Assembly (NCBI GenBank): GCA_964552945.1
Contig: CAZKIP010000007.1
Coordinates: 745-64,744 of the forward strand
Reading direction: 5' to 3'
Origin: an uncultured Methanosarcinales archaeon
GTDB taxonomy: Archaea; Nanobdellota; Nanobdellia; Woesearchaeales; GW2011-AR9
Length of the DNA: 64,000 nucleotides
The position numbers and the translations under genes were made by a program. Shown here piece after piece: positions 14,211-64,000 of the stretch. Position 1 is the first letter of the stretch; each line of letters begins with the position of its first letter. The notes beneath the pieces were generated by a model that saw only the letters and a list, made by a program, of their open reading frames with translations, was not told the DNA's origin and did not search any database.

Positions 14211-14248
14211 ATAATTAAGAATAACTTTCTGTTTATATAGTTTTGGGA

Positions 14249-14578
14249 TTAACTTATTTTTAGAATTTTTTTAATTTTTTCAAAATTTGCTTTTATATCT
14301 GGTCCAAAATCCTCAATATTTAGTTTAGAAGCTTGCATTTCAGCCATAATTTTACGATATTTTTCAGGCCCTTTTTTGAGAACAAATGCATCAAGTTCTT
14401 TACTCCGATTTCCTTTAGAAGAGGCCATAGATAAATTCATCCTTAATTGGTTTATTTGTTTAGCGATAGCTGCAATTACGCTGTCACGATCTATCCTTTT
14501 TCCACCAGTTATTCTGGCCCATACACTGCTAATGCCCATTTTATTATAGAAATCGTTTGAATATAAATAAGTTTTCAA
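14249..14578 (-). CDS. Hypothetical 109-aa basic protein.
   Basis: ORF only. No motif recognised. Confidence 0.35.
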   Translation of the reverse strand: MKTYLYSNDFYNKMGISSVWARITGGKRIDRDSVIAAIAKQINQLRMNLSMASSKGNRSKELDAFVLKKGPEKYRKIMAEMQASKLNIEDFGPDIKANFEKIKKILKIS

Positions 14579-17228: not shown

Positions 17229-17512
17229 TTTAAAACCACCTTACACTCTCCATAAACACATTTAATCTCTCCTTGACCACAATCTGCCGTTTCCGGAACA
17301 CATTCTGTAGTACAAATCATTCCTTTACAATCAGGAGCGTTTTCTTTATTAACTGCATCTTTAGCATGGCAACAAGTTGCCTTTACACAATCTGAATCTA
17401 AGGAACATTTTTTTTCCGGAGCTATTGAAACATTCTCCGTTGTACAAGAAATTAATAAAAAAGAACCAACTAATAAAAACAAAATCATTCCTCTTTTTGA
17501 AACATCCATCAT
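17225..17512 (-). CDS. Small secreted cysteine-rich protein (11 Cys in about 72 mature residues).
   Basis: Signal peptide plus the Cys pattern (CSLDSDC, CC, C..C, C...C). There is a 4-bp overlap with gatD upstream and with the VIT gene downstream. Confidence 0.5.
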   Translation of the reverse strand: MMDVSKRGMILFLLVGSFLLISCTTENVSIAPEKKCSLDSDCVKATCCHAKDAVNKENAPDCKGMICTTECVPETADCGQGEIKCVYGECKVVLK

Positions 17513-26290: not shown

Positions 26291-26326
26291 CTTTATTTCT
26301 CCAGAATCCACCACCAAATAGTTAAA

Positions 26327-33821: not shown

Positions 33822-33872
33822 ATTTTTTTATTTTTTATCTTTTTTTTATTTTTTATTTTTTAAAGCGTTGTT
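33822..33872. terminator. Oligo-T tract between convergent genes. Likely an archaeal intrinsic terminator for both.
   Basis: TTTTTTTATTTTTTATCTTTTTTTTATTTTTTATTTTTT runs immediately after the stop at 33821. Confidence 0.4.
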
Positions 33873-34442
33873 AAAAAGTTCTATTTTATCCCAATTGTTT
33901 TGTAATTTCTCATTGATAATATCTTTTAACCATCCCTTATCTCCAGAAAAAACAAGTTCTTTATTTTTGTAGAAAGGCATTTCTAAGGTATGGCTATCCC
34001 TAATTTCAATAATAATCTTGTTGCTAATGGACAATATTGAAGATTTCTTATAAAATGTTCTTGCTAATTCCAACAAAGATTTTGCTGAATCCAAATCTTG
34101 GCAAGCAATGTGGATGATAAATCCTTCATACCTTAACCAGATAGTATCGTTTGTATCGTTTATATCGTTTATACCCTTTGTTTTGTTTGTTTTATTTATT
34201 TCTTCAACTAAATCTAAGAAACTTTCTTCGATGAAATCGTGACTTACTCTTATCCATTCAGTCTCATTTTTTTTCCCACTACCTTTCCAGAAATAAACCC
34301 TTCCAGAACAAGAAGAAGTAGTATAATAATTGTCTAATTTGTTAATTGTTTCAATAATGCTTAAAGCATGCTTATCAACACTTCCTTTCTTACTTTTATC
34401 CAACTTTTCTAGGAAAGTTTTTTTTTGATTATTAAAAGGCAT
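33846..34442 (-). CDS. taw3: tRNA wybutosine-synthesizing protein 3 homolog (Taw3/TYW3).
   Basis: The SSCSGR motif (TTSSCSGRVYFW) is characteristic of TYW3. The size is 198 aa, and it contains an internal low-complexity insert. Confidence 0.65.
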   Translation of the reverse strand: MPFNNQKKTFLEKLDKSKKGSVDKHALSIIETINKLDNYYTTSSCSGRVYFWKGSGKKNETEWIRVSHDFIEESFLDLVEEINKTNKTKGINDINDTNDTIWLRYEGFIIHIACQDLDSAKSLLELARTFYKKSSILSISNKIIIEIRDSHTLEMPFYKNKELVFSGDKGWLKDIINEKLQNNWDKIELFNNALKNKK

Positions 34443-35477: not shown

Positions 35478-35804
35478 TCATTCTACTTCAGAATATTTTA
35501 GATTACTCCCATAAAACTTTTCAACAGGATACTTCTCTTCATTTTCAATCATTTTCTGATCAAACCAGTGGATTAAATCAATATCTAATACATCAGCTAA
35601 TCTCAACAAGACATTTAGCACGTCTGCTAATTCTTTAGCCAATTCCTTTTTATCAAAATGTGATTTAAAACGAAATGGTTCTAAAACTTCACCTGCTTCA
35701 AGAACTAATGCTATTGCAAGATCTTTGGGGTTATGAAATTTTGTCCAATCTCTATCCTCACTGAATTTCCTTACTTTTCCTTTAAGTATGTTTATTTCAT
35801 TCAT
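35478..35804 (-). CDS. MazG-like nucleoside triphosphate pyrophosphohydrolase (all-alpha NTP-PPase).
   Basis: FSEDRDWTKFHNPKDLAIALVLEAGEVLE...ELADVLNVLLRLADVLDIDL is the MazG-domain EExxE/metal-binding helix pair. The start was taken at the internal ATG preceded by GGAGGAAG. Confidence 0.65.
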   Translation of the reverse strand: MNEINILKGKVRKFSEDRDWTKFHNPKDLAIALVLEAGEVLEPFRFKSHFDKKELAKELADVLNVLLRLADVLDIDLIHWFDQKMIENEEKYPVEKFYGSNLKYSEVE

Positions 35805-36624
35805 TTTCTTCCTCCAACACCATCCGCATATACCTCTTTCCAACTGCCATGTTTATCGGCTGTTGCATTATTGCATCCAATAATTCAGGAGGTAGTCCTT
35901 TCTGTAAAAGAATTTGTTCTACTCTATATTGAAGTCGTTCTGCTTCCTGTAAAATTGTGGAATCTACTTTCGCCCAAGAATCTGCAAGATACATCAATCC
36001 AACTTCTAATTCATATCCTAAAACGATTGGAAATAGTTTCTTAACTGCTTCTGTAAAATAATCAGATTGTACCCATTCTTTGGTATATCCTAGGCCTGAT
36101 TCTATAATTTCTAATCGAAGCAATCCCAATTCAAAATGTTTTCCTGCGCAGTTAGCAATGTAATCTATTTGTTTATCAGTTAACCCATGAGTGTGTAGAA
36201 TTACTGATACAAATGGTTCTAAAATTATTTGTTGAGAATATTTTTCATGTCCATCAAAATCAAATTTTCCTTCACCAAGTGCTTTGTTAAATTTCCCAAG
36301 ATCATGAAGTGGTAGTGCAATACCAATTAGTTCTTGTTTTGAAACCCCATCAATTTCTTCTTGTAGGTAATCAATCAATGCTTTGTGTAAATATTTAGGG
36401 ATATCACATAGAAATTTTTTTGTTGACCAATATTCCTGTAATTTTTTAGAGTGAGTTATTATCCCCCACTGATGCCACATTGGCTGGTGCTCTTTTGGTG
36501 AATCGAGATTTTGTAGAAATTTCTGTTTGTCTTCTTCTGGAAGTCTAGCATTTCTTAAAGCAATTTGTTTACTAATCTCCGGTAACTTTTCTTCAAGGTC
36601 CTGTACTATTTCACTAGTGTCCAT
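35797..36624 (-). CDS. HD-domain phosphohydrolase.
   Basis: The ordered His...HD...His...His...Asp pattern is WHQWGIITHS, LPLHDLGK, ILHTHG, AGKHFE and YLADSW. Confidence 0.6.
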   Translation of the reverse strand: MDTSEIVQDLEEKLPEISKQIALRNARLPEEDKQKFLQNLDSPKEHQPMWHQWGIITHSKKLQEYWSTKKFLCDIPKYLHKALIDYLQEEIDGVSKQELIGIALPLHDLGKFNKALGEGKFDFDGHEKYSQQIILEPFVSVILHTHGLTDKQIDYIANCAGKHFELGLLRLEIIESGLGYTKEWVQSDYFTEAVKKLFPIVLGYELEVGLMYLADSWAKVDSTILQEAERLQYRVEQILLQKGLPPELLDAIMQQPINMAVGKRYMRMVLEEENE

Positions 36625-39673: not shown

Positions 39674-41146
39674 TTACTTGATTAAATAACCCTTATCCTT
39701 TCTTAGAAACTCTACCGCTAAATCTAATTTAGATCTACTTTCAGAATAAACAGTATACAAAAGGCCACCTTTTTTAATATTGTCTCCAACTTTAACATTT
39801 AAGTAAAGTCCTGAACCTTTATTTTTTGGAGCGCCCGCAATTCTAGCAATTTTTACAATTGTTTTGTTGTCGATAAAAACAACTTTTCCACTCTTACCAC
39901 TTTTTACTTTCAAATGATGTTCTCCCAACTCTATCTTCTTAGCTTTTCCTTGCAATTTAATAATCTGATTCATCTTTTTCAGAGCTTTCCCACTCTCTAA
40001 AAGTTCAAGAGCAACTTTCTTTCCATTACGGTATCTTCCAGTCATCTCCAAAAGAATTCCAGCCATTTCAACCGCTTTCTTCTTCAAATCTTGCGGAGCA
40101 GTAGGATCATCACGAAGCACATGCATAACGTCCTGGGCTTCCAACAAAGGACCTATGCCATTTCCAATTGGTTGTGTCCCATCTGTAACTATTACTTTAA
40201 CACTCATACCCAATTTTTTCCCCAATGATTCAAATTTTTTCTTCAAACTTTTTGCTTCCTTTTTATTTTTGACTTTAACTTCTGGACCCATAGGAATATC
40301 AATAAGAACATGATTTGCAGTAACTGAAAATTTCTTAGCCATTACTGAAGCAAGAAGTTGTCCTTCTGCATCGATTGAAAGCGGATGTTCTACCTCAATT
40401 ATTTTATCATCTGCGGGAGCCAGGTTCATTGAACCACCATGAACTATGCAAGCCCCAGAAGTTCTAACAATCTTCTTAATTTTTTTCTCAGAAAGTTCTA
40501 CTTTAGCTAGACATTCCATCGTATCTGCGGTACCAGCAGGAGAAGTTATTGCTCTTGAACTTGTTTTTGGGATGGTTAATCCAGCTGCTGCAATTATTGG
40601 AATCACCACCATGGTTGTTCTATTTCCAGGAACACCACCAATACAATGTTTGTCTAAAGTAATTCCTTTAAATTTAATTCTTCTCCCTGTGTTAACCATT
40701 GCTTTGGTCATGTTAACTACTTCTTCACTTGACCACCCATGTGTAAAACCGGCAGCTACAAAATAAGTCATTTCGATAGCAGTTAACCTGTCATTGGTAA
40801 TATCATCAATAATATGAAATAATTCGTGATAATTCAGCTCTTTTCCGTATAATTTAGCTCTTATATGAGCTACAGATTTCGGTTTACCTGTAAATTTAAC
40901 ACTTACAAAATCTTTCTGTTTTACTTTTAAAACATCTAGAACTTCTTCAAATAATCCAATTTGTCCTTCGGGAACTGCTTTATCACTCTCAGAAATATCT
41001 AAGATGCAGGTTATGTTCTTTTTACCATCTCTTACTAAAATTCTATCTCCTGAATGAAGGTCCAATTTCTCTGCATCTATATGATTTAGTATAACTACCA
41101 TTATGCCTCCGGTAGCTATATCCATATCTTTAACACGGAACTTCAT
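39674..41146 (-). CDS. AMP phosphorylase / thymidine phosphorylase family (archaeal DeoA-type with an N-terminal extension).
   Basis: The N-terminal domain is MKFRVKDMDIATGG...VILN. The pyrimidine-nucleoside-phosphorylase core is HCIGGVPGNRTTMVVIPIIAAAG. The size is 490 aa, as in archaeal AMPpase. Confidence 0.7.
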   Translation of the reverse strand: MKFRVKDMDIATGGIMVVILNHIDAEKLDLHSGDRILVRDGKKNITCILDISESDKAVPEGQIGLFEEVLDVLKVKQKDFVSVKFTGKPKSVAHIRAKLYGKELNYHELFHIIDDITNDRLTAIEMTYFVAAGFTHGWSSEEVVNMTKAMVNTGRRIKFKGITLDKHCIGGVPGNRTTMVVIPIIAAAGLTIPKTSSRAITSPAGTADTMECLAKVELSEKKIKKIVRTSGACIVHGGSMNLAPADDKIIEVEHPLSIDAEGQLLASVMAKKFSVTANHVLIDIPMGPEVKVKNKKEAKSLKKKFESLGKKLGMSVKVIVTDGTQPIGNGIGPLLEAQDVMHVLRDDPTAPQDLKKKAVEMAGILLEMTGRYRNGKKVALELLESGKALKKMNQIIKLQGKAKKIELGEHHLKVKSGKSGKVVFIDNKTIVKIARIAGAPKNKGSGLYLNVKVGDNIKKGGLLYTVYSESRSKLDLAVEFLRKDKGYLIK

Positions 41147-43081: not shown

Positions 43082-44938
43082 ATGAAATCTACTAAAAATA
43101 TTAAGGTACCTTCCAAGATTGTTGAGCAAGTTATTGGTCAAGAAGAAGCAGTAAATATTATCAAAAAAGCTGCTCTTCAAAGAAGGCACGTTCTTCTAAT
43201 TGGAGAGCCAGGTACAGGAAAAAGTATGCTTGGATTAGCCTTGGCAGAACTTCTTCCAAAATCAGAATTAAGAGACATTTTATCCTTTCCAAACCCTAAC
43301 GATGAGAATAATCCTTTCATTAAAACCATCCCTGCAGGAGAAGGAAGAGACGAAGTTAAAAAAAATCAACTTGATGGCAAACAAGCCTTAAAAAACAACA
43401 ATTTTCTTCTTTTCATTGTCGCAATTGTAGCATTAATTGCACCTTGGTGGGTTAGAAGTTATTACAATTCAGATTTAATGTTTGCCGCCTTTTTTCTTGG
43501 TGGAATGATGTTTTTAGCCGCATTTGCCATTATGATGAGTATGGGGCAAAGAATGTTCAAAGGTAACCAAAACGTCTTTCCAAAGGTAATTGTTGACAAT
43601 TTTGGGAAAAAACAAGCTCCTTTCTTTGATGCTACCGGTGCACATGCTGGTGCCCTATTAGGAGACGTATTACACGACCCTTTTCAATCAGGAGGTTTGG
43701 GAACTCCTGCTAACCAAAGAGTTGTTGCTGGAATGATACATAAAGCTCATTTAGGAGTGCTATTTATCGATGAAATTGCTACTTTAGCGCCAAGAACTCA
43801 ACAAGAACTACTTTCTGCCTTGCAAGAAAAAAAGTTCCCTATAACTGGTCAATCTGAAAGGTCTGCGGGAGCCATGGTTAGAACTGAAGCGGTACCTTGC
43901 GACTTTGTTTTGGTAGCCGCAGGTAACCTAGAAACAATAAAAAATATGCATCCTGCTCTTCGTTCTAGGATAAGAGGGTATGGTTATGAAGTTTATATGA
44001 ACGAGACAATGATAGATAACAAAACAAATAGGTTGAAAATTGCTCGTTTTGTTGCTCAAGAAGTTAAAAGAGAAGCTGGAAAAATACCTCATTTTGATCT
44101 TACTGGAATAAAAGCAATCATTGAAGAAGCCAGAAGAAAAGCTAACAGAAAAAGTCACTTAACATTACATCTTCGTAGTTTAGGAGGGCTAGTAAGAGCC
44201 GCGGGAGATTTAGCCAAAGAAAAAAATTCAAAAACAGTATCAAAATTGCATGTTAAAGAAGCTAGAAAATTAGCTCGTCCTCTAGAGCAACAAATTGCAG
44301 ACAAACACATTGATCGAAAGAAAGAATATGAAGTAATTGTTACTTCAGGAAAAAAGATTGGTAGAGTTAATGGTTTAGCTGTTATTGGTAGTGGTTCTGC
44401 CCATTCAGGAATCTTACTTCCAATTGAATCTGAAGTTACTATGGGAGGAAAGACCTCTGAGATTATTGCTACAGGTAAATTGGGAGAAATTGCCAAGGAA
44501 GCGGTTAAAAACGTATCCGCAATCATCATGAAATATTTTGGAGAAGACATAAAAGAAACCAGGGACATTTTCGTGCAATTTCTTCAAACTTATGAAGGAG
44601 TTGAAGGTGATTCTGCATCTATTGCGGTAGCTACTTCAATCATATCTGCTTTGAAAAACATTCCTGTAAAACAAGAAGTAGCCATGACAGGTTCATTATC
44701 TGTTCGAGGCGAAGTTCTTCCAGTTGGCGGAGTTTCTTCTAAGGTAGAAGCAGCAATCGATACTGGAATAAAAACAATTATTGTTCCAAAATCAAATTTG
44801 CGAGATATAGTAATTGGAAAAGAGAAGTTAGAAAAGGTTAAACTCGTACCTGTAGAAACCATTGAAGAAGTTCTAGAACAAGCTTTAGATTGGAATGGTA
44901 AAAAGGGGATAAAAAACAAAATTTTTGGTAAAATATGA
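43082..44938 (+). CDS. lonB: Archaeal membrane-bound ATP-dependent Lon protease (LonB).
   Basis: Walker [11 protein letters not shown]. Two TM helices are inserted in the AAA+ domain ([37 protein letters not shown]). The C-terminal Lon protease domain has GDSASIAVA and [17 protein letters not shown]. Confidence 0.9.
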
Positions 44939-45311: not shown

Positions 45312-45689
45312 ATGGCTAGATCACAAGAAAAATCAAACAGAAAAGCTTCTGGAGGGCGTTTACGCTCAGGAAGAACTAAAAGAAAGTACGAATTAGCTGG
45401 TTTTCCTGCTTTAACAAAAATAAGCGAGAAAGTAATTGTTCGTTCCAAAAGAATTATTGGTGGAAACACTAAATTAAGAACCCTTTCTACAAATAACATT
45501 ATTGTTTCTGATAAAAAAGGAAAAACTCAAAAAACTGAATTGGTAAATGTAGTTGAAAATCCTGCTAACCCACACCTAGTTAGACGTAATATTTTAACAA
45601 AAGGAGCAATTGTTGAAACAAAATTGGGTAAAGCAAAGATAACTTCCAGACCTGGTCAAGAAGGAACAATTAGCGGAACATTATTGTAA
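45312..45689 (+). CDS. rps8e: 30S ribosomal protein S8e.
   Basis: KASGGRLRSGRTKRKYELAG, ENPANPHLVRRNILTKGAIVET and TSRPGQEGTISG match S8e. Confidence 0.85.
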   Translation: MARSQEKSNRKASGGRLRSGRTKRKYELAGFPALTKISEKVIVRSKRIIGGNTKLRTLSTNNIIVSDKKGKTQKTELVNVVENPANPHLVRRNILTKGAIVETKLGKAKITSRPGQEGTISGTLL

Positions 45690-52797: not shown

Positions 52798-53817
52798 ATG
52801 GTAATCAACGTAGCTATTAATGGGTTTGGTAGAATAGGAAGGATGGTTTTCCGTGTAGCAATGAAAGATAAAGCTATTAACATCGTTGCAGTAAACGATC
52901 TTACAGATAATAAAACATTGGCACATCTTCTAAAATATGATTCTGTTCATGGAATACTTCCAGACAAAGTAGGATTTACTAACGGCTATTTGTTAGTCGG
53001 TAAAAAAAAAATTCAAGTTTTATCAGAAAAAGATCCAACCAACATCCCTTGGAAAAAAATGAAGATAGATGTAGTTGTTGAAAGTACTGGTTTTTTTAGA
53101 GATCCTGTTAAGGCAGCTGCACATTTAACTTCCGGTGCAAAGAAGGTGATAATTTCAGCACCATGCAAATGTGAATCTGGAAAAATGTGTCCAGCAAACA
53201 CTTTGACAATTGTTCTTGGTGTAAACGAAAAAAGATACAATAAGAAAAAACATCACATCATAAGTAACGCTTCCTGTACAACCAATTGTGTTGCACCAAT
53301 AATGAAAGTTTTAGAAGAAAAGATTGGTGTGAAAAGATGTTTCTTTACAACAATTCATGGATATACAGCAGACCAACGTATAGTAGATGGTCCCCATAAA
53401 GATTTAAGAAGAGCTAGAGCTGCTGCAGTAAATGTAGTCCCTACTTCTACCGGTGCGGATATTGCAACTGTTGAAGCCATTCCTTCATTAATGGGGAAAA
53501 TCCGTGGTTCAGCTATTCGTGTGCCAATTCCTGATGGAAGTATAACAGATTTTACCATTGAAATGAAAAAGAGTGTAACCGTTGATCAGATTAATAAATT
53601 ATTCAAAAAGCACGCTGCTGGAAAGATGAAGGGCATCATTGAGTATTCTGAAAATGAGTTAGTTTCTTCGGACATTGTTGGCAACCCCCATTCATCCATC
53701 TTTGATTCAAAATTAACAAAAGTCGTGGATGGAAAATTTTTGAAGATTGTTTCTTGGTACGATAATGAGTGGGGATATTCTAAAAGAATGGTCGATTTAA
53801 TTAAGTATGTAAGTTAA
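52798..53817 (+). CDS. gap: Glyceraldehyde-3-phosphate dehydrogenase, class I (bacterial/eukaryotic type).
   Basis: NGFGRIGR, the active-site SNASCTTNC and the C-terminal WYDNEWGYS. These are class I signatures, not those of archaeal type II GAPDH. Confidence 0.9.
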   Translation: MVINVAINGFGRIGRMVFRVAMKDKAINIVAVNDLTDNKTLAHLLKYDSVHGILPDKVGFTNGYLLVGKKKIQVLSEKDPTNIPWKKMKIDVVVESTGFFRDPVKAAAHLTSGAKKVIISAPCKCESGKMCPANTLTIVLGVNEKRYNKKKHHIISNASCTTNCVAPIMKVLEEKIGVKRCFFTTIHGYTADQRIVDGPHKDLRRARAAAVNVVPTSTGADIATVEAIPSLMGKIRGSAIRVPIPDGSITDFTIEMKKSVTVDQINKLFKKHAAGKMKGIIEYSENELVSSDIVGNPHSSIFDSKLTKVVDGKFLKIVSWYDNEWGYSKRMVDLIKYVS

Positions 53818-53839: not shown

Positions 53840-55726
53840 TTAATCAAAATAAATTCTGATAATTCCTTTAACTTTCTGAACTCTTCTAACCATTTCTTTA
53901 AGATGTTCCAGATTTCTAGGGATTACTTTGAAAGAGCATTTAGCGTCAACACCAAGCAACTTAGCTTTCGCTTCCTTAACTTCAAATCCTGCTTGAGCAA
54001 TTGTATGTAAAAGGTCTGCTAAAAGACCACTTCTTTCTCCGGCTTCAACATGGAAAGAGATTCTTTGTGTGTAATTCTCTTTCCATTTAACCGGAATTAA
54101 CTTATCTTCTTTCTTTAAAGCTTCTTTACAATTATCTCTGTGAACAGAAATTATTCTTCTTTTTGTTATTAAACCAACAATGTTTTCTCCTGGCAAAGCT
54201 TGACAACATTTGGCCAAAGTACAAACTGCCCGAGGATATTCTTCAGATGAAACTAAGACTCCTTTTTCTTCTTTTACAACTGGTTTAAATAGACGGAAAT
54301 GGAAAGAAGGTAAATTTTCGTAATCTTTCAAAACTTTTCTTATTCTTTGTCTAGCTTTTGAAGATGAAACTATTTTAATCCAACTTCTTCTTGGTCTTTG
54401 TTTTTTATGAGTAATAATTTCTACAACGTCCCCATTCACAAGTTTATGTCTTAACGGAACAAATTTTCCATTAACCTTCCCTCCAACACATTTGCTTCCA
54501 ATTTCTTCATGAACTGCATAAGCAAAATCAAGAACTGTAGATTCAACAGGTAATTCTTTCAAATCTCCGAGAGGAGTATAACAATAAATTTTATCACCAA
54601 AAACATCTACTTGGACCGATTCCAAAAATTCATTATCTTTTTTCTTTAAATCAAGAACCTCTTTCATCCAAGCAATTTTTTTCTCAAATATTTTGTCAGA
54701 TTTGAAATCCTTATATCTCCAATGTGCAGCAATTCCTTCTTCAGCAAACTCCTCCATCTCTGGAGTCCTTATTTGAACTTCGATTACCCACCCATTGTTT
54801 AATTTAACTCCAGTATGCAATGATCGATAAAAATTAGGTTTTGGATTAGCGATGTAATCTTTCAATCTACCTTCAATTGGTTCAAACTTCTCATGTAACA
54901 ATCCTAAAAAAGTGTAACAATCTTTTTCGGTAGGAACAATTACCCTTATCCCTAACAAATCAAATAAATCATTTAACCTTTTCTTTTTACGAACTACTTT
55001 TTTGTAAATACTGTAGATATGTTTTGGTCTCCCTTTAATCTTTAAAAGATCTAATTTTCCCCTAGACATTTCCTTTAAAAGTTCAATGACCCTTTCTATT
55101 TTATGTTCTCTTTCTTCTCTTGTTTCTTCCAGGAACTCTTGTATTTCAACATGTTTTTTTGGATTGATAATATAAAAAGCACAATCTTCCAACTGGACTC
55201 TTATTCTTTCAACCCCTAACCTATAAGCAAGAGGTGCATATACTTCCAAAACTTCAGAAGCCAACCTTTCTCTTTCATCAGGAGGAAAAACATGGACAGA
55301 ATTTAAGTTATCTAATTTATTTGCCAATTTGATAAAAATAACTCTTAAATCATGCAAGGCTGTAACCATAATTCTTCTTAAGGCATCTCCAGGGACATTC
55401 ACATTGTTAATCTTAATATGTCTTAATGTATTGACCTCATTCAATAAAGAAACAATGTTCTTCCCAAATTTATCTTCTATCTCCTTTTCAGGAATTTTAT
55501 CCAATAAACCATGTAATAATCCTGCCAAAACAGTTTCTGGGTCTGCTTTATTTTCAACTAGAATTTTTCCAACACGAATATTATGTTCAGAAAATAAATC
55601 GCCAGCTAGACGTTTCTCCTTCCCCAACTGTTCTTCTACATAATTAACAGCCTTTTCAAAAAGAAGAAGGTCTTCTTCAGTATAACCCTTGCCTCTACAC
55701 AGCAAAAGAAAAGAATTTCCTTCCAT
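53840..55726 (-). CDS. Long RelA/SpoT-homolog (RSH) (p)ppGpp synthetase. The domain order is degenerate HD, synthetase, TGS, CC/ZFD, ACT.
   Basis: The synthetase motifs are GRPKHIYSIYKKV, DLLGIRVIV, YRSLHTGV and EVQIRT. The TGS is YCYTPLGDLKELPVESTVLDFAYAVH..GD. The zinc-finger domain is CTLAKCCQALPGENIVGLIT..ISVHRDNC. The C-terminal domain is ACT. In the HD motif position, LLHGLLDK has Asp replaced by Gly. Confidence 0.85.
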   Translation of the reverse strand: MEGNSFLLLCRGKGYTEEDLLLFEKAVNYVEEQLGKEKRLAGDLFSEHNIRVGKILVENKADPETVLAGLLHGLLDKIPEKEIEDKFGKNIVSLLNEVNTLRHIKINNVNVPGDALRRIMVTALHDLRVIFIKLANKLDNLNSVHVFPPDERERLASEVLEVYAPLAYRLGVERIRVQLEDCAFYIINPKKHVEIQEFLEETREEREHKIERVIELLKEMSRGKLDLLKIKGRPKHIYSIYKKVVRKKKRLNDLFDLLGIRVIVPTEKDCYTFLGLLHEKFEPIEGRLKDYIANPKPNFYRSLHTGVKLNNGWVIEVQIRTPEMEEFAEEGIAAHWRYKDFKSDKIFEKKIAWMKEVLDLKKKDNEFLESVQVDVFGDKIYCYTPLGDLKELPVESTVLDFAYAVHEEIGSKCVGGKVNGKFVPLRHKLVNGDVVEIITHKKQRPRRSWIKIVSSSKARQRIRKVLKDYENLPSFHFRLFKPVVKEEKGVLVSSEEYPRAVCTLAKCCQALPGENIVGLITKRRIISVHRDNCKEALKKEDKLIPVKWKENYTQRISFHVEAGERSGLLADLLHTIAQAGFEVKEAKAKLLGVDAKCSFKVIPRNLEHLKEMVRRVQKVKGIIRIYFD

Positions 55727-55789
55727 TAATTGTACATATGTCTTGATATATTAAAATCTTTGCGGAATAAAGTATCTATTTTGCTATAT

Positions 55790-57028
55790 TTATCCCCATT
55801 TTTCGATTTTTAGAAGTCGATTGTATTTGGCAGTTCTTTCGCCTCTACAAGGTGCTCCAGCCTTAATTTGACCGGTTCCCAACGCAACAACCAAATCTGC
55901 AATGAACGTATCTGCAGTTTCCCCACTGCGATGTGAAACCATTACCTTCCACTTATTTTTTCTAGCCAATTCAGCAGCTTCAAGAGCTTCTGTTAAAGTT
56001 CCAATTTGATTTACTTTTAGCAACAAACAATTACAACTTTTTTCATTGATTGCTCTTATAATTCTAAGTGGATTTGTTACAGTTAAATCATCGCCAACAA
56101 TTTGTATTTTATTCTTTTTAATCCTTTTGGATTCTTTAGTTAACCTTGCAAAACTATCAAAATCACTTTGATCAAAAGGATCTTCGATAGAAATAATAGG
56201 GTACTTCTTAATCAATTTCAAATAGCGAGTTAATAATTTTTCTTTAGTAAGCTTTTTACCATCAACTACATATTTCCCTTTTGAATAAAATTCAGAAGCA
56301 GCACAATCCATGGCGATGTCAACTTTGTTTTTATAACCAGCTTTTTTTATTGCTTTGAGCAATAGTTTAAGAACTATTTCAGCCTTATGCATCTCTTCAG
56401 GAGCAAACCCCCCTTCATCACCCACATTAGTTGATCCTTTCCCATACTTCTTATCAATCTCTTTTTTCAGCTGATGATACACTTCACTTCCCGCACGTAA
56501 ATTATCTTTATATTTTCTCAGATTGGGAGAAATCATAAATTCTTGAAAACTCAAATTGTTATCTGCATGTTTCCCCCCATTGATAACATTAAAGAAAGGC
56601 CGAGGCAATTTTGTTTTAGTTTTTGTTAATTTATTAAGATATTTGAAAAGTTCAAGATTTTTTGAATTTGCAGCGGCTCTTGCACATGCTAAAGAAACAC
56701 CTAAGATTGCATTAGCCCCTAATTTAGATTTATTATTAGTCCCATCCAATTTAATCATCGCAAGATCAATTTCTTTCTGCTTAGAACAATCTTTACCTTT
56801 CAATAATTTGGCTATTTTTTGAACATTTCTGATAGCTTTCTGAACACCTTTCCCTTGATACCTTTTACCACCATCCCTTAACTCCACTGCTTCATATTTT
56901 CCCGTGCTAGCTCCGGAAGGGACAGCTGCGGTTCCAGAATAGTTTTTAGTAAAAACGGTGACTTCTATAGTAGGATTCCCTCTGGAATCCAAAATTTCTA
57001 TGGCCTTGATATTTTTTATTTTAGGCAT
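55790..57028 (-). CDS. eno: Enolase.
   Basis: IEILDSRGNPTIEV, SGASTGKYEA, and the enolase C-terminal barrel motifs are present. The size is 412 aa. Confidence 0.95.
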   Translation of the reverse strand: MPKIKNIKAIEILDSRGNPTIEVTVFTKNYSGTAAVPSGASTGKYEAVELRDGGKRYQGKGVQKAIRNVQKIAKLLKGKDCSKQKEIDLAMIKLDGTNNKSKLGANAILGVSLACARAAANSKNLELFKYLNKLTKTKTKLPRPFFNVINGGKHADNNLSFQEFMISPNLRKYKDNLRAGSEVYHQLKKEIDKKYGKGSTNVGDEGGFAPEEMHKAEIVLKLLLKAIKKAGYKNKVDIAMDCAASEFYSKGKYVVDGKKLTKEKLLTRYLKLIKKYPIISIEDPFDQSDFDSFARLTKESKRIKKNKIQIVGDDLTVTNPLRIIRAINEKSCNCLLLKVNQIGTLTEALEAAELARKNKWKVMVSHRSGETADTFIADLVVALGTGQIKAGAPCRGERTAKYNRLLKIEKWG

Positions 57029-57195: not shown

Positions 57196-58248
57196 TTATT
57201 CTAAAAGTTTAAGCTTGGGTTTAGAGGTAGATTTAGGTTCAGCTGAGAAAGTTCCAATATCGTTCCTAAAATATTGTGTAGGGACGTACAAACCATCATC
57301 TGTAGTTCTGACCCAATCTTCTTCCAAAAGAAAATTGGCAATTTCTCTTCGTAAAGTTGCGTTCTCCACTATTTTGCTCAAATCTTGCTGCGCAACCCCT
57401 CTACTATCTCTAATTGCAGAATATAGTTTATCAACCTCCTCTTTAAAAGGCAATACAGCACAATTATTACAAACTGGAGCATAAACAATCCTCCCATCTT
57501 CCGCTTCTTCAATTCTTTTAGTTTTATCAAAATAAGGGGCAGAAACATATTTTCCAATAATATTGTTTCCTTTTTTATCATCAAAATCATAAAGAGACAT
57601 CTCACCTGCCAATTCTCCAATATCTGCCTCTTCAACAAAATCAAGAGACCATAATCTTTGAGAATGAGAAGCATCATCACCACAATTTTTTCCTCTAATA
57701 AGAGATTTGCAAACTGGATTCAATTGAATTGAACGTACGTAAGGAAAAATTGCTCTAACATGTCCAAAAGGACGATGTCTGAAATCATACTCTAACCCAG
57801 AAACTCCTAAAGTTATTCCCCTCTTTCTACACCAAGAGATAAATTGGATTGCTTCATTAGCTCCCTTTTCATCAAGGCAAAACAAATTAATTTCATCAAT
57901 CACTACAGCACTAATATCTCTATATTTCCAATGTTTTGCGCCGTCAATAACAATTCTTCCATTCTCTCCTTGATCTGCAATTTTTCTAGAATGAATTTTT
58001 TCCATTCTAAATTCTAAATCAGCAACAATTTCAGGAAAGCCCTGAACGGTTTTGGCAGGATATCCCTCCCTACCATCTACTACTAGTTGATTGACCCCAT
58101 CTCTAGTGTTAAAATGAGAATTATAAGCTACAAAATTTTTTCCGGCATGATGAAAAAGTTCAAGCATGGCAACAACAGCTTTAGTCTTACCCCCATTCAT
58201 AATAGAAAACCAGCCAAAAGATTTCCCTTTAAGATCTTCCACGCTCAT
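57196..58248 (-). CDS. tdk: Thymidine kinase with a roughly 140-aa C-terminal extension.
   Basis: The P-loop is FSIMNGGKTKA (TK-type Y/FSxMNxGKS/T). Walker B is VVIDEINLF. The LEYDFRHRPFG region aligns with the TK lasso. The zinc-ribbon cysteines are NPVCKSLIRGKNC and a later CNNC. The extension has no recognised family. Confidence 0.6.
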   Translation of the reverse strand: MSVEDLKGKSFGWFSIMNGGKTKAVVAMLELFHHAGKNFVAYNSHFNTRDGVNQLVVDGREGYPAKTVQGFPEIVADLEFRMEKIHSRKIADQGENGRIVIDGAKHWKYRDISAVVIDEINLFCLDEKGANEAIQFISWCRKRGITLGVSGLEYDFRHRPFGHVRAIFPYVRSIQLNPVCKSLIRGKNCGDDASHSQRLWSLDFVEEADIGELAGEMSLYDFDDKKGNNIIGKYVSAPYFDKTKRIEEAEDGRIVYAPVCNNCAVLPFKEEVDKLYSAIRDSRGVAQQDLSKIVENATLRREIANFLLEEDWVRTTDDGLYVPTQYFRNDIGTFSAEPKSTSKPKLKLLE

Positions 58249-58347: not shown

Positions 58348-60741
58348 ATGCTTCTAAAGAAAATTGTCTTAGAGAATATTCGTTCCTATACTAGAGAGGA
58401 GATTATCTTCCCAGAAGGCTCAATAATTCTTTCTGGAGACATTGGAAGTGGAAAATCTTCCATTCTCTTAGCAATAGAATTTGCCCTATTTGGAACTTCT
58501 CGCCCAGATTTGCCAGGGGAATTGTTGCTTAGAAAAGGCGCCAAACAGGGGTCAGTTGAATTAAATCTTATTATTAACAATCAAGAGGTTTCGATTAAAA
58601 GAAATTTAAAAAAAGAAAAAGAGAATATTAAACAACCTGCCGGCCATATTATTATAAATAATTTGAAAAAAGATCTTATGCCTGGAGAATTGAAAACAGA
58701 GGTTTTTAAGCTTCTTGGCTATCCTGAAGATTTAATATCAAAAAATAAGAATTATCTCTTTCGCTACACCATCTACACCCCCCAAGAAGAGATGAAATTT
58801 GTTCTACAAGAGAATCCTGAAGTAAGACTAGATACTCTAAGAAAAATTTTTGATATTGACAAATACAAAAATGTGAGAGATAACTTACAAGTTTACTTAA
58901 AAAATATGAGAATGAAAATTGCCATTCTTAATACGAAAACAGAACCCTTAGAAGAAGAAAGAAAGAAGTTGGAAGAAGTTAATAAGGAAAATGAAGAGTT
59001 GCAAAAAAGTTTAACTATTTTATTACCCAAAAAAGAGGAGGCAGATTCTCTAATTGCAAAAAAGAAAGAAGAGATTGCTTTACTAGAAAAAAAGGAAGCA
59101 GAATTTCTAAAAAATGAACAAAATTACAAAAATTCACAAATAATTATTAAAGGTAAAACAGAACAATTAATCCTAGAGCAACAAAAGAAGGAGCAACTTT
59201 CTCTACAAATAAGTGCCTTTTCATTCTCCGGAGATAAAAATGAAATTTCTCGAGAAGTACAGGAATTAGAATTAAAAAGAAAAAAAATTATTTCAGAAAA
59301 AAGTACTTTACAAGAACAAATAAATCAACAGCAACTAAAAATCAGACAACAGCAAGAAGAAATTGCTAAATTAGGAGAAGAGATGCTTCTTCTTCCAGAA
59401 AAGGAAAAAGAAATCGCAACCCTTTCAAACCAAATTGCAACGAAACAAGAATTGCAAGAAAAAAAGAAGCATCTGGAAGAACTTTTCCAGAAAACTTTAG
59501 AAATCTCTGCTAAGAACCTCACCATCCTCAATCAATCAAAAGAACTTAGTAACAAAATCCTTTCTTTAGATAATTGTCCTTTATGTCTTCAAGACGTTTC
59601 TCATAATCACAAAGAGAAAATTTCTAACCAAGAACAAGAAAAAATTAAACAATCGGAAAACCTTCTTTTTGAATCCAACAAAAAAAAGGAAGAAATCTCT
59701 CAACAGAAAGCAGAAGTTTCAAAAAAAATTGAAGAGATTGTTAACAAAGAAAAAATACTTGCCAAATTAAGGATAGAATGTTCTCAATTACAAGAGAAAA
59801 AAAGTTTATTTGAAAAGAAAAAGGAAGAATTACCTCAATTAGCTAAATGGAACAATTTATTGATGGAACAACTTGAAAATCTTCCACAAGACACCAATTT
59901 AGAAAAAAATTTGAAAGAAAAAAGGGATTTATTAGAAAAACTTTCAAAAAAAGAATTCTTACAAAAACAGCTTGGAGAATCATTATCCCTGCAGGAAAAA
60001 TTAAACATAGAAATAAGAAAAATTAATCATGAGAAAGAAGCGTTGGAATTATGGTTATCTCAGCAAGAAAATCCTAAAGAAAAAATAACTTTACTGAGAG
60101 AACTTCTACAAGCAGATATGGATAAGGAAAAAGAATTGGCTTTACAACAGATGGAACTAAAAACCAATCTACAAAACTTAATTCGCAGAGCCCAAGAGAT
60201 TAAAACAACAATAGAAAAATTAAAAGAAGGAAAAAATCAATTGATAAAATATAAAGAACATTACAATTGGCTGGACAAATTCTTTCTCAACCTTACTTAC
60301 GCTATTGAAAAACAAATTATGTATAGCATTCATCGATTATTTAACCAACTTTTTCAGGAATGGTTTGCCATTTTAATTGATGACGATCAAATATATGCAA
60401 AAATTGATGATGGTTTCAGTCCCGTTATTGAACAAAATGGTTACGAGATTGGCTTTAACAATTTAAGTGGCGGTGAGAAAACTTCCGCTGCTCTTGCCTA
60501 TCGGTTAGCCCTGAACAGAGTAATTAATGATGTTATACATCAAATAAGAACCAAAGATGTATTAATTCTAGATGAACCAACCGATGGATTTAGCACAGAT
60601 CAATTAGATAAGGTAAGAGACGTTTTAGATAAATTAAGTTTAAGACAAACAATCATTGTTTCGCATGAGAGTAAGATTGAAAGTTTTGTTGAAAACATAA
60701 TTAGAATTAGAAAAGAAGGACACATTAGCCAGATTGTGTAG
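58348..60741 (+). CDS. rad50: Rad50-like DNA double-strand-break repair ATPase.
   Basis: N-terminal Walker A GDIGSGKSSIL. There is a long central coiled coil with the zinc-hook CPLC near its midpoint. The C-terminal signature is LSGGEKTSAALAY and the Walker B/D-loop is LILDEPTDGF. Confidence 0.8.
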   Translation: MLLKKIVLENIRSYTREEIIFPEGSIILSGDIGSGKSSILLAIEFALFGTSRPDLPGELLLRKGAKQGSVELNLIINNQEVSIKRNLKKEKENIKQPAGHIIINNLKKDLMPGELKTEVFKLLGYPEDLISKNKNYLFRYTIYTPQEEMKFVLQENPEVRLDTLRKIFDIDKYKNVRDNLQVYLKNMRMKIAILNTKTEPLEEERKKLEEVNKENEELQKSLTILLPKKEEADSLIAKKKEEIALLEKKEAEFLKNEQNYKNSQIIIKGKTEQLILEQQKKEQLSLQISAFSFSGDKNEISREVQELELKRKKIISEKSTLQEQINQQQLKIRQQQEEIAKLGEEMLLLPEKEKEIATLSNQIATKQELQEKKKHLEELFQKTLEISAKNLTILNQSKELSNKILSLDNCPLCLQDVSHNHKEKISNQEQEKIKQSENLLFESNKKKEEISQQKAEVSKKIEEIVNKEKILAKLRIECSQLQEKKSLFEKKKEELPQLAKWNNLLMEQLENLPQDTNLEKNLKEKRDLLEKLSKKEFLQKQLGESLSLQEKLNIEIRKINHEKEALELWLSQQENPKEKITLLRELLQADMDKEKELALQQMELKTNLQNLIRRAQEIKTTIEKLKEGKNQLIKYKEHYNWLDKFFLNLTYAIEKQIMYSIHRLFNQLFQEWFAILIDDDQIYAKIDDGFSPVIEQNGYEIGFNNLSGGEKTSAALAYRLALNRVINDVIHQIRTKDVLILDEPTDGFSTDQLDKVRDVLDKLSLRQTIIVSHESKIESFVENIIRIRKEGHISQIV

Positions 60742-61527: not shown

Positions 61528-62352
61528 CTAATCTACTACAGATTTCAAAGAAGCAATCCCTACTTCCAACTGTTCATCAGAAGGTTCTTGCGTAGTAATA
61601 CGTTGCAACCATAACCCTGGAGCTACTAAAGCTCTCACAACAACATTTTTCTGAAATTTAGCACTTAACTTAATCAGTTCATAACTAAGTCCACCGATAA
61701 CCGGTAAAAGGAGAATTCTACCAAATAATTTAATCATCCATGACCCATCTAATAAAGAAAATATCAAGATAGACATCAGAAGAACAATGAAAAGAAAAGA
61801 AGTTCCGCAACGAGGATGAAATCTAGAAAATTTCTTAACATTCTCTAAAGTTAACTTTTTACCTGATTCATAACAATAAATGGACTTATGTTCCGCCCCA
61901 TGATATTGAAATAGGGTTTTCACATCTTTCATAAAAGAGATTATTGCTAAATAACCTAGAAAAAGAATTACTCTAAAAGCGCCATCTAAAGCGTCAAATA
62001 GTAAACCATCTGCATGAATCCATCTTGCAGTGAAAAATGGCAAAAGAACAAAAAATAAGACTGCAAACAAAAATGACATCGAAATTGTGCCTATAATTTC
62101 CTTCTTAGATAATTCCTCTTCTTCACCGAGATTTTGATTACTACTCCAAATTAAAGCTCTAACACCATCGTATAAAGTGTAACCTAATCCTACAACACCC
62201 CTTACAAATAGAACGTTAAATATTTTTGGAAAATTACTGCTTTTTTCTTTCTTAATTTTTATTTTTCCGTTAGGAAGCCTTACAGCTATTGCAAACTTTT
62301 CTTTATTTCGCATCATCACTCCTTCGATGACCGCTTGACCCCCAACTTCCAT
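61528..62352 (-). CDS. DUF1385-family membrane protein.
   Basis: The N-terminal segment GGQAVIEGVMMR, the YHGAEHK motif, and multiple TM helices. Confidence 0.6.
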   Translation of the reverse strand: MEVGGQAVIEGVMMRNKEKFAIAVRLPNGKIKIKKEKSSNFPKIFNVLFVRGVVGLGYTLYDGVRALIWSSNQNLGEEEELSKKEIIGTISMSFLFAVLFFVLLPFFTARWIHADGLLFDALDGAFRVILFLGYLAIISFMKDVKTLFQYHGAEHKSIYCYESGKKLTLENVKKFSRFHPRCGTSFLFIVLLMSILIFSLLDGSWMIKLFGRILLLPVIGGLSYELIKLSAKFQKNVVVRALVAPGLWLQRITTQEPSDEQLEVGIASLKSVVD

Positions 62353-62468: not shown

Positions 62469-62807
62469 ATGCGCTATATTGCCCTCCCCTCAGCTATCAG
62501 AGAAGAAAACGAAAGAACCACTTATGGTGCACCATATACTATATTTGCTGTAGATGAGAAAAATTATTTTAGAGTTACTGACCTTTCTGAAGATAAACCA
62601 GTTCGCCACCCATTAAAGTACGGAACTAGAGATTACAATCGTATTAAAAAATGGATTAAAGAAAGAAAATTATTTCAATATCCTAACGCTAGAGCACATG
62701 TAACTTTGGAATGGGTTATTGATAACCTCAAAAAAACTTCCCCAATCCTTCCTGCTTGCTCCCCGAAAGAAGTTCCTCTTCTGAATAACCCAACACAGCT
62801 AGGATAG
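62469..62807 (+). CDS. Hypothetical protein (overlaps the 3' end of polB by about 80 nt).
   Basis: ORF only. Confidence 0.3.
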   Translation: MRYIALPSAIREENERTTYGAPYTIFAVDEKNYFRVTDLSEDKPVRHPLKYGTRDYNRIKKWIKERKLFQYPNARAHVTLEWVIDNLKKTSPILPACSPKEVPLLNNPTQLG

Positions 62808-64000
62808 ATTCAACAGCAGGCATAAGTTGATGTTTAAGATAATATTCTACATCATATTCAGTAACTTCTTCAGGAATCATTGCTCTGTCTCTCACCAACC
62901 CTGAACCTTTACTAATAACGTAAGCAATACTCATTCCTGGGACTATCCTCATTCCTCTATCAGCCAACTTTTGCGCAATTTTTACGTGGGGGCTTATTGA
63001 AGAATACTTACTCAATTCACGAGTTATTTGAGTTTTAATAATCAATTTTGAAATAGGAACTTCTCCTTTTCGAAGTTCTTCAATCTTTTGTTTAACATAT
63101 TGCACAGCTTCTTCATTCTTATTATTCAAAACCAATGATAAAACTTCTTCCTGTACTTCTTTAGCAAAAATGGACCAATTTCTTCTTACCATTTCAAAAC
63201 CGGTAATCTTCATTGAGCCATCTTCCTTAATCAATGCATATTTTTTCTTAGCTCCACGAGAACTTCCTTTCAACCCAACAAAAATTCCCCTCGGAAAGAA
63301 CCCTTCAAACTCTAACTCCATTTTTCCTGGAAGATCTTTGTTTATTTTCTCCATGAAAGACATAGATTGTTTCAACTTCTTTTTCTCTAAAACAATGAAA
63401 CAAGAATCCGTGTCAGCATAAATGACTTTGAAACCATCCAATTGAGCTTCTTCAATAACTTTCATAATGTAATCTCTAGCATAAGCGGTAGTTGAAGCAG
63501 CACTTTCAAAAGAATACCATCTGGCCCCGTAAAAAGCAAGATATCCATAAAATGAATTTGCAAGAATTTTTAGTGCATAAGATCTTGACTCAAGTAAAGG
63601 AGTCATCTTCTGTTGTTTCAATTTTCTTCTATTTGTAATAATATCTTCTAAAACAAAAGGAAGAAACCCTTTCTTATCCTTACAGAACCAATATTGTTCT
63701 CTCCCTGGAACAGTCTCTTTATCTTGACAATTCTCTTTTTTAAAACTTTCAGGACCAATATTGTGAGCGGAAATAATTGTTGGATACAAAGAACGAAAAT
63801 CAAAAATAACAACATCTTCATAAATTCCGGGAGTTGGTTCAAAGACAAAAGCTCCTTGAATAGATTCTTGCATCCTTTGTTCAATTTCATTATTACTTGG
63901 TTTATTTGGAGCAATTACGTTATGATCAATCGCTCTTTTCATAATATAATTCTCTACCAACCTACTGAACCTCATTCTAATTACATCAAAAGTTGGCAAT
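62728..64000 (-). CDS. polB: Family B DNA polymerase, C-terminal (palm/thumb) portion. The N-terminus lies beyond the window end.
   Basis: Motif A is DFRSLYPTIISAHNIGPES. Motif B is KILANSFYGYLAFYGARWY. Motif C is YADTDSCFI. The frame runs open to base 64000. Confidence 0.85.
   Translation of the reverse strand, partial: LPTFDVIRMRFSRLVENYIMKRAIDHNVIAPNKPSNNEIEQRMQESIQGAFVFEPTPGIYEDVVIFDFRSLYPTIISAHNIGPESFKKENCQDKETVPGREQYWFCKDKKGFLPFVLEDIITNRRKLKQQKMTPLLESRSYALKILANSFYGYLAFYGARWYSFESAASTTAYARDYIMKVIEEAQLDGFKVIYADTDSCFIVLEKKKLKQSMSFMEKINKDLPGKMELEFEGFFPRGIFVGLKGSSRGAKKKYALIKEDGSMKITGFEMVRRNWSIFAKEVQEEVLSLVLNNKNEEAVQYVKQKIEELRKGEVPISKLIIKTQITRELSKYSSISPHVKIAQKLADRGMRIVPGMSIAYVISKGSGLVRDRAMIPEEVTEYDVEYYLKHQLMPAVESILAVLGYSEEELLSGSKQEGLGKFF

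Follow-up and report, generated by a model that had tools for sequence, protein, structure and literature searches.

A compact long RelA/SpoT homologue with a degenerate hydrolase site in a Woesearchaeota-type archaeon

Does any archaeon use the alarmone (p)ppGpp? The question is raised by a gene on the archaeal contig CAZKIP010000007.1, of which a 64,000-nt stretch was analysed as a whole (hereafter the window). The gene encodes a RelA/SpoT homologue (RSH) of the long, multidomain kind, hereafter the query. An earlier survey of RSHs had found in archaea only sporadic single-domain members, in a few Euryarchaeota, and had counted the absence of long RSHs among the traits of archaea (Atkinson et al. 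2011, PMC3153485). From the sequence of the query, its predicted structure and a comparison with its relatives, we consider it probable that the protein is a monofunctional (p)ppGpp synthetase which carries a regulatory pseudo-hydrolase domain, is likely to be gated by tRNA and the ribosome, and has been vertically inherited in a DPANN archaeon of the Woesearchaeota type.

Domain architecture and catalytic sites

The initial annotation, made from the DNA letters alone, had described a long multidomain RSH at this locus; the complete coding sequence coincides exactly with the open reading frame (ORF) it had named, and all of the motif strings it quoted were found in the product (Table 1). Pfam domains HD_4, RelA_SpoT, TGS and ACT_4 follow one another in that order, and PF28438 (RelA_RIS), the ribosome-intersubunit (RIS) or zinc-finger domain (ZFD), is also assigned in the precomputed Pfam annotation, which bears out the TGS, Cys-rich ZFD and ACT domains reported earlier. 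The query is a multidomain long RSH, with an HD-type domain followed by a synthetase (SYNTH) domain N-terminally and TGS, ZFD/RIS and ACT/RRM domains C-terminally; the helical domain of long RSHs is not of full length, the TGS-ZFD spacer being 63 aa (bacterial median 135). The NCBIfam model TIGR00691 (spoT_relA) was passed with 538.6 bits (cut-off 499.2), while the SpoT equivalog model NF008303 (403.6 bits, cut-off 947) and the RelA equivalog model NF008124 (373.3 bits, cut-off 728) were both failed. Chance resemblance is out of the question, as the E-values of the matches range from 1e-39 to 1e-161, and an identical protein is present in JGI, NCBI, ENA and Logan assemblies.

An AlphaFold2 (AF2) model of the query, computed from an 81-sequence alignment, reached a mean predicted local distance difference test score (pLDDT) of 83 and a predicted template modelling score (pTM) of 0.62. 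All five domains were modelled confidently, and low-confidence parts were the SYNTH-TGS linker (residues 336-377) and residues 472-487. When the whole model was compared with the PDB using Foldseek, ribosome-bound RelA (5iqr) was the top match (E 1.4e-39) and B. subtilis Rel and full-length SpoT were found as well; the catalytic, N-terminal half superposed on S. aureus Rel (7oiw) with a template modelling (TM) score of 0.91 at 2.3 A.

In order to compare the hydrolase site residue by residue, numbering was transferred through a phmmer alignment of the query to B. subtilis Rel (PDB 6yxa; E 1e-113, 38% identity), in which flHDvvED lies opposite llHGllDK of the query and klADRlHN opposite klANKlDN. 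Residues R44, H53, H77, D78, E81, D82, D144 and N148 of Rel correspond to R39, H48, H72, G73, D76, K77, N136 and N140 of the query, so that where the intact site of bifunctional Rel and SpoT has the signature RHHDEDDN the query reads RHHGDKNN. The inactivating HD-to-HG change put forward in the initial annotation was thus seen, at G73, and the damage proved wider. D78 is replaced by Gly and D144 by Asn, which removes two of the four Mn2+ ligands known from the hydrolase site of S. equisimilis Rel (RelSeq; structure of Hogg et al. 2004); the equivalents of E81 and D82, the catalytic Glu-Asp pair, are also gone. Mutation of the Asp homologous to D78 abolished hydrolysis by RelSeq, according to the RSH literature. 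As a control on the scoring, E. coli SpoT returned RHHDEDDN together with RVKD, and E. coli RelA a fully degenerate site together with EFDD.

Two sets of relatives were used for comparison. The best 120 of the 7973 matches from a word-indexed search, aligned with MAFFT, are all about 630 aa long, have the same architecture and are 56-64% identical to the query; these are referred to as the 120 orthologs. An exhaustive search of 50%-identity representatives returned 4983 proteins at E<=1e-30, and the top 150 of them served for length classes, signatures and the wider comparison. They fall into a bacterial-length class (at least 680 aa), which aligns to the query in two stretches, and a compact class (about 590-665 aa), which aligns end to end. 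The complete hydrolase signature was found in 103 of 114 bacterial-length representatives and in none of the 120 orthologs. At position 73, 95 of the orthologs have Gly and 4 have Asp; position 136 is Asn or Thr in 100 and Asp in 4, never together with Asp73; and positions 76 and 77 are hypervariable. With a mean column conservation of 0.67, the HD domain is the least conserved of the domains compared. R39, H48, N140 and a clade-specific KLA[N/T]KLDNL motif are nevertheless invariant in it, which we read as a sign of a retained ligand-binding or structural role. Since these residues are kept, the HD domain seems to have been retained for something other than catalysis, most likely, by analogy with RelA, as an allosteric or autoinhibitory module. 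With two Mn2+ ligands and the Glu-Asp pair lost, such a pseudo-HD domain would be unable to hydrolyse the alarmone. The public name of the orthologs at NCBI and JGI, 'bifunctional (p)ppGpp synthetase/guanosine-3',5'-bis(diphosphate) 3'-pyrophosphohydrolase', is probably wrong in its first word, because the hydrolase site is dead across the clade.

The synthetase domain presents the opposite picture, as the initial annotation had held. The strings GRPKHIYSIYKK (residues 232-243), DLLGIRVIV (256-264), YRSLHT (300-305) and EVQIRT (316-321) were all located, and R233, K235, D256, K289, D290, Y300, H304, E316, Q318 and R320 are invariant across the 120 orthologs. Among these are the catalytic residues, D256 and E316 being D264 and E323 of Rel, and R233 and K235 the equivalents of its R241 and K243; the D264G variant of Rel is synthetase-dead (PMC7797070). 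Position 287 is Arg or Lys in 119 of the 120, which together with the invariant K289 and D290 gives the RxKD motif of bifunctional Rel and SpoT, and mean column conservation of the domain is 0.81. The alignment shows a large archaeal clade that keeps a full-length, predicted synthetase under strong purifying selection, its regulatory domains arranged as in bacteria and its hydrolase discarded.

The closest counterparts in both sequence and structure are the bifunctional Rel enzymes of B. subtilis (6yxa), S. equisimilis (1vj7) and S. aureus (7oiw). They share with the query the order HD-SYNTH-TGS-(helical)-ZFD-ACT, the RxKD motif and the TGS histidine, but differ from it in their intact hydrolase site, their 135-aa rather than 63-aa spacer, their length (about 730 against 628 aa) and their host. 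E. coli RelA, seen on the ribosome in 5iqr and 5kpv, is alike in outline, combining a pseudo-hydrolase and a synthetase with a ribosome- and tRNA-sensing C-terminus, the likeness of the query in this respect being one of sequence. The earlier comparison to synthetase-only RelA therefore holds as an analogy, a degenerate HD domain beside an intact SYNTH domain, but not as membership. The query has RLKD in place of the ExDD of proteobacterial RelA (EFDD in the E. coli and Pseudoxanthomonas proteins), it fails the RelA equivalog model, and it belongs to a separate clade in a neighbour-joining (NJ) tree, in which E. coli RelA and Xanthomonad RelA form a group (100% bootstrap) far from the query clade. 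The hydrolase was for these reasons lost independently of RelA. The two enzymes also differ within the degenerate site, as the equivalents of H53 and H77 are gone in E. coli RelA and kept in the query (H48 and H72).

In the regulatory C-terminus, H406 of the TGS domain aligns to H420 of B. subtilis Rel and H432 of E. coli RelA, and does not vary in the 81-sequence alignment used for the model. In the bacterial enzymes this histidine stacks against the CCA 3' end of the uncharged tRNA in the A site, and substituting it abolishes activation (PMC7797070). Most TGS positions are invariant or nearly so (mean column conservation 0.82 in the 120 orthologs). In the zinc finger (CTLAKCC...HRDNC, residues 502-533), C502, C507, C508, H529 and C533 are invariant across the same set; the ZFD and ACT domains have mean conservations of 0.74-0.76, and the ACT/RRM domain was modelled with a pLDDT of 87-92 and a beta-alpha-beta-beta-alpha-beta topology. 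Because H406 and the zinc-finger Cys and His residues are invariant, we argue that tRNA and ribosome sensing has probably been retained. Between TGS and ZFD, a feature that the initial annotation had missed, the query model contains only two short helices (448-452 and 456-469), followed by residues 472-487 with a pLDDT <50. Across 55 compact sequences the distance between the end of TGS and the first ZFD cysteine has a median of 63 aa, compared with 135 aa across 118 bacterial-length ones; the helical domain of B. subtilis Rel spans residues 470-583, about 114 aa (PMC7797070). The helical domain of the query is thus about half of the bacterial length.

Relatives of the query and its archaeal residence

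The query is no isolated rarity, as it had first been taken to be. Hundreds of orthologs of about 630 aa are found in metagenome-assembled genomes (MAGs) labelled Woesearchaeota or Nanoarchaeota, with related compact long RSHs in further archaeal contexts. That archaea generally lack long RSHs, as also stated in the initial annotation, is outdated for DPANN: a census by Li et al. (2021, mSystems, PMC8407392) counted RelA/SpoT in the genomes of 69% of Diapherotrites, 41.7% of Woesearchaeota, 21.3% of Pacearchaeota and 19% of Nanoarchaeota, and predicted, with one sentence and a supplementary tree, a bacterial origin. Given that census and the public annotation, the presence of long RSHs in DPANN archaea is already known. 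The census concerns the same gene family in the same organisms at the level of annotation ('synthesized and/or hydrolyzed'), and says nothing of conserved synteny, of a dead hydrolase site, of the shortened helical region or of some lineages being intact and others degenerate. A search of open-access full text and bioRxiv found no report of a clade-wide dead hydrolase, of an independent RelA-like subfunctionalisation with an RxKD motif, or of a compact helical region. The archaeal small alarmone synthetases and hydrolases of Methanosarcina, Methanococcoides and Natronomonas, attributed to transfer from bacteria (PMC3153485), are likewise RSH-superfamily genes in archaea, but they are sporadic and single-domain, whereas the query has the full multidomain form and is widespread and syntenic in a large archaeal clade.

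By its length, its end-to-end alignment, its short TGS-ZFD spacer and its archaeal gene neighbours the query belongs to the compact RSHs. Outside the query clade, compact members have an intact hydrolase site in 9 of 30 cases and a degenerate one in 21, with a synthetase motif of the form xxKD or xxDD. Archaeal markers were found in 7 of 8 sampled non-query contexts (clear in loci L011, L013, L014, L018, L019 and L021, weaker in L017 and L020; L022 is not diagnostic). Among the hydrolase-intact representatives, P0123 adjoins two Cdc6/Orc1 genes and TFS, on an archaeal contig, P0174 adjoins class-I LysRS, Trm56 and TFE, and P0131 adjoins DUF357. Of the degenerate ones, P0133 adjoins PAC2, L21e, Rpb4 and an archaeal CCA-adding enzyme, and P0135 SAMP2/TtuA/UbaA-like genes; the context of P0232 is not diagnostic. 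In locus L018, the context of P0123, the compact RSH (5612-7540) lies 2.5 kb from a 270-aa gene with a RelA_SpoT domain only, a small alarmone synthetase (10088-10900, minus strand), so some DPANN-type archaea may carry multi-enzyme alarmone toolkits.

The placement among RSH subfamilies that had been suggested as a check was made with the NJ tree (Kimura distances, 632 columns, 100 bootstraps). It recovered the query clade at 100% and placed beside it P0121/P0126/P0132/P0133 (99%) and P0130 (92%), all hydrolase-degenerate. The query clade is thereby set apart from RelA, but neither the monophyly of all compact archaeal RSHs nor a bacterial donor received support in this tree (bootstrap 25 or less). 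The wider set of compact archaeal long RSHs is therefore a provisional, weakly supported grouping, within which the hydrolase seems to have been lost more than once. The closest bacterial homologs are 37-40% identical to the query, and a scan of GTDB genomes with the query protein gave 7 loci, which served as bacterial references and are too few for a taxon census.

Pfam annotation of 58 ORFs of the window revealed archaeal or archaeal-eukaryotic markers on both sides of the RSH gene (Table 1), including the TFB, L10e, S8e and GatD genes noted at the outset. The GC content of the window is flat (0.30-0.36). A 62-kb JGI contig carries the identical protein with the same neighbours, as do two Logan assemblies made independently; the contigs that hold relatives at 58-63% identity measure 200-370 kb, and the protein clusters of these relatives reach contigs of up to 930 kb. 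These relatives, several of which are labelled Woesearchaeota, Nanoarchaeota or Nanoarchaeia at source, keep the order PolB-DUF1385-Rad50-like-eno-RSH-gap-RsmF-M29-Sua5-S8e-LonB-ScpA. The check on chimerism that the initial annotation had called for thus came out in favour of its archaeal assignment: the two-sided markers, flat GC, independent assemblies, conserved synteny and a TATA-like box described below exclude chimerism, contamination and recent transfer, and the contig is archaeal. Since scans of the window for tRNAs and Rfam families gave no matches, the taxonomic assignment rests on protein markers and synteny. An eno-RSH-gap block with 57-64% identity to the window proteins, at a GC content of 0.41, is also found at 30-7695 of L004 (CAYIEX010000061.1). 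The MAG, a GTDB representative, bears the label 'uncultured Methanosarcinales archaeon', but the contig is most likely of the Woesearchaeota type and wrongly binned or labelled, and the RSH not that of a methanogen.

Promoter, neighbouring genes and other coding sequences

Table 1 Features of the RSH locus and archaeal markers of the window (residues are those of the query)
Feature	Coordinates	Strand	Basis or remarks
Complete coding sequence, compact long RSH	53840..55726	-	628 aa, ATG start; Pfam and NCBIfam matches
Pseudo-hydrolase HD_4 domain, residues 26-172	55211..55651	-	Pfam HD_4 8.8e-29; fold kept (TM 0.91 to 7oiw)
Degenerate HDxxED motif LLHGLLDK, residues 70-77	55496..55519	-	Aligned to B. 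subtilis Rel H77-D78-x-x-E81-D82
(p)ppGpp synthetase domain, residues 232-340	54707..55033	-	Pfam RelA_SpoT 2.8e-39; RLKD (RxKD-type) at 287-290
TGS domain, residues 380-439, with His406	54410..54589	-	Pfam TGS 1e-20
Shortened helical region and flexible linker, residues 440-500	54227..54409	-	AF2 model, spacer lengths
ZFD/RIS domain, residues 501-545	54092..54226	-	PF28438 RelA_RIS
ACT/RRM domain, residues 556-626	53849..54061	-	Pfam ACT_4 5.4e-08
TATA-box-like element TTTTAATATA	55747..55756	-	Sequence; 21-30 nt upstream of RSH ATG; no Shine-Dalgarno
Type I (bacterial-type) glyceraldehyde-3-phosphate dehydrogenase (GAPDH), gap	52798..53817	+	TIGR01534; convergent with RSH, 22 bp apart
Enolase, eno	55790..57028	-	TIGR01060 527.9 bits; directly upstream of RSH, 63-bp gap
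L10e	2176-2697		Marker, one side of RSH
PAC2	13407-14210		Marker, same side
GatD	17509-18795		Marker, same side
TFB	25367-26317		Marker, same side
TYW3	33846-34442		Marker, same side
LonB	43082-44938		Marker, same side
S8e	45312-45689		Marker, same side
Rad50-like ATPase	58348-60741		Marker, other side of RSH
Family-B DNA polymerase	62728-63999		Marker, other side of RSH

Upstream of the RSH start codon lies a TATA-like element, which recurs at -28 to -30 in the orthologous loci L013 and L014, with similar T/A boxes in L011 and L017; a pattern of this kind would turn up by chance in 0.7% of 24-nt slices drawn at random from the window. It would be an archaeal TATA box serving a leaderless or short-leader mRNA. 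A scan for sigma-70 promoters and intrinsic terminators yielded no more sites than shuffled sequence and was set aside in favour of the position-conserved box.

The flanking glycolytic genes are those named in the initial annotation, which had also recognised gap as bacterial-type: its product scored 422.9 bits with TIGR01534 (cut-off 367.2) and only 34 bits with the model for archaeal type II GAPDH. The RSH-gap adjacency is kept in L011, L012 and L004, with gap nearby in L013 and L014, and the eno-RSH order in L013, L014 and L004. In L014, genes for a 6-phosphogluconolactonase-like protein, 6-phosphogluconate dehydrogenase and transaldolase (11878-14269) are inserted between RSH and gap, and a TrmB-like regulator with a GrpE-DnaK-DnaJ block comes before the RSH in L011; the RSH repeatedly adjoins bacterial-type central-metabolism and chaperone genes. 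Directly upstream of eno and RSH, the window encodes a 350-aa protein (57196-58248, minus strand) with a partial thymidine-kinase match (residues 97-200, 1.7e-11) between long unmatched flanks; it is present in L001 and not at that position in more distant syntenic loci. A DUF1385 protein (6e-82) is encoded at 61528-62352 (minus strand), as at 4084-4908 of L013 and 3361-4185 of L014, and its gene directly adjoins that of the family-B DNA polymerase in every Woesearchaeota-type locus examined, as a tight pair.

Two genes of the window bear on nucleotide salvage. One (20745-22043, plus strand) encodes a 432-aa fusion of a PNP_UDP_1 nucleoside phosphorylase with a phosphoribosyltransferase; purine/uridine nucleoside phosphorylases and phosphoribosyltransferases are classes with known (p)ppGpp targets in bacteria. 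The other (39674-41146, minus strand; 490 aa) belongs by Pfam to the thymidine-phosphorylase family, with an N-terminal extension, and presumably resembles archaeal AMP phosphorylase, an enzyme of the nucleotide-salvage/RuBisCO shunt that has often been described from DPANN genomes. Elsewhere, a 1614-aa protein (28977-33821, plus strand) combines an N-terminal lamin-tail domain (LTD, 5e-18) with a match to the Nup98-type S59 autopeptidase (9e-08, about residues 1072-1145), an unusual pairing of eukaryote-associated domains in what is presumed to be a surface protein. Four very large ORFs, at 5777-11254 (minus strand, 1825 aa), 2740-5214 (minus strand, 824 aa), 11273-13258 (minus strand, 661 aa) and 186-2171 (plus strand, 661 aa), have few or no Pfam matches (purple-acid-phosphatase N domain, glucodextranase B, bacterial Ig-like) and are probably cell-surface or attachment proteins of the sort typical of DPANN episymbionts.

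Proposed function and alternative explanations

The homologies set out above allowed us to propose a plausible course for the evolution and action of the query. An ancient bacterial long RSH would have given rise to the ancestor of the gene, which would then have been inherited vertically in Woesearchaeota-type DPANN archaea. The intact RxKD-type SYNTH domain would bind ATP together with GTP or GDP and transfer pyrophosphate, and the HD domain, its fold kept and hydrolysis lost, would most likely act as an allosteric or autoinhibitory module like the pseudo-HD domain of RelA. Uncharged tRNA on a stalled ribosome would gate this activity through the CCA-sensing His of TGS, the ZFD/RIS and the ACT/RRM domain, across a shortened connector. 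The alarmone would be removed by dilution or by another enzyme, such as a small alarmone hydrolase encoded elsewhere in the genome or a Nudix- or MazG-type pyrophosphatase; a ppGpp-degrading Nudix enzyme in Thermus was noted by Atkinson et al. (PMC3153485).

A number of points weigh against this proposal. In bacteria, having a synthetase but no hydrolase is toxic (PMC3153485), and when all ORFs of the window were searched with profile hidden Markov models for a second HD or SYNTH domain the RSH alone was found, so that no partner hydrolase is encoded within these 64 kb. The only non-RSH candidates for alarmone degradation seen are a MazG-like protein (35478-35843, minus strand) and a 344-aa HIT protein (22655-23689, minus strand) on the same contig, and a NUDIX gene just outside the window (159-578 of L001). 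The invariant residues of the HD domain could in principle support residual or altered activity. Archaeal and bacterial ribosomes differ at the RelA docking sites. In B. subtilis, moreover, TGS on its own forms no stable complex with tRNA and depends for specific binding on the helical domain (PMC7797070), which is roughly halved in the query. Gating of the query by ribosome and tRNA may therefore not be conserved.

This last concern leads to the alternative of an active synthetase whose C-terminus is blind to ribosome and tRNA, serving instead for autoinhibition or as a sensor of small molecules or proteins (amino acids at ACT, a partner protein at TGS), the bacterial domains being unable to dock on an archaeal ribosome. 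The halved helical domain with its predicted disordered connector, the archaeal host ribosome (L10e, S8e) and the neighbours of some loci, be they metabolic (gap, eno, pentose-phosphate genes) or the TrmB-like regulator with GrpE-DnaK-DnaJ, would all fit it; we regard it as a serious rival, though a rather unlikely one, given that the CCA-stacking His and the Cys and His residues that build the RIS are invariant and that TGS is so highly conserved. A normal bifunctional Rel, with synthetase and hydrolase as the public names imply, is harder to maintain and in our view improbable: four of the residues on which hydrolysis depends (D78, E81, D82, D144) read G, D, K and N, the corresponding positions 73, 76, 77 and 136 are unconserved, with the full set in none of the 120 orthologs where 103 of 114 bacterial-length representatives are complete, and the score against the SpoT equivalog model lies far below its cut-off. 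Those names aside, that reading draws on the RxKD motif, typical of bifunctional enzymes, on the retained HD fold and on the lack of a separate hydrolase nearby in the window.

Two further explanations concern where the product acts and whether the gene belongs to the archaeon at all. An episymbiont might release ppGpp, pGpp or (p)ppApp to act on its host or on competitors, so that the product would not be, or not only be, an internal alarmone. DPANN archaea are described as mostly ectosymbionts (PMC8407392), some RSH synthetases are reported to make pppApp (PMC6491832), and no cognate hydrolase was seen in the window; yet a long RSH with a full regulatory C-terminus, a guanine-type RxKD motif and canonical synthetase residues, lacking a signal peptide, a toxin-antitoxin-like operon or any sign of export, makes this highly improbable. 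We give practically no credence to contamination from a bacterium, to a chimera made in assembly or binning, or to a very recently transferred gene without a role in the archaeon. Three typically bacterial families (RSH, type I GAPDH and DUF1385) do lie within a few kb of one another, and the relative in the Methanosarcinales-labelled MAG illustrates that binning labels around this family can err, but archaeal markers flank the block on one contig of uniform GC, the block recurs in three independent assemblies, and synteny persists between deeply diverged relatives on contigs 200-370 kb long, protein clusters being found on contigs of up to 930 kb. Together with the archaeal-type promoter box and the distance to the closest bacterial homologs (37-40% identity), this refutes that explanation.

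We thus return to a synthetase-only enzyme that is probably gated by tRNA and the ribosome, and from it put forward a broader and more tentative proposal, possible but short of probable: that Woesearchaeota-type DPANN archaea run a (p)ppGpp stringent response on an archaeal ribosome, with the compact RSH, turned independently into a RelA-like synthetase-only enzyme, sensing uncharged tRNA through TGS, ZFD and ACT across a minimal helical connector, and with the alarmone cleared by a non-RSH enzyme or a separate hydrolase. The value of the finding is tempered by the fact that the presence of the gene in DPANN had been published and annotated, and that the organisms are uncultured. It nevertheless provides a concrete, clonable protein with which to ask whether any archaeon uses (p)ppGpp, whether a bacterial ribosome- and tRNA-sensing module can work on an archaeal ribosome with half of its helical domain, and how a cell tolerates a synthetase-only RSH. 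As a second, independent case of RelA-like subfunctionalisation, it should also be useful for understanding why a pseudo-hydrolase domain is kept. If the broader proposal is true, it would amount to the first alarmone system in archaea, with a ribosome-sensing module that occurs naturally in minimal form.

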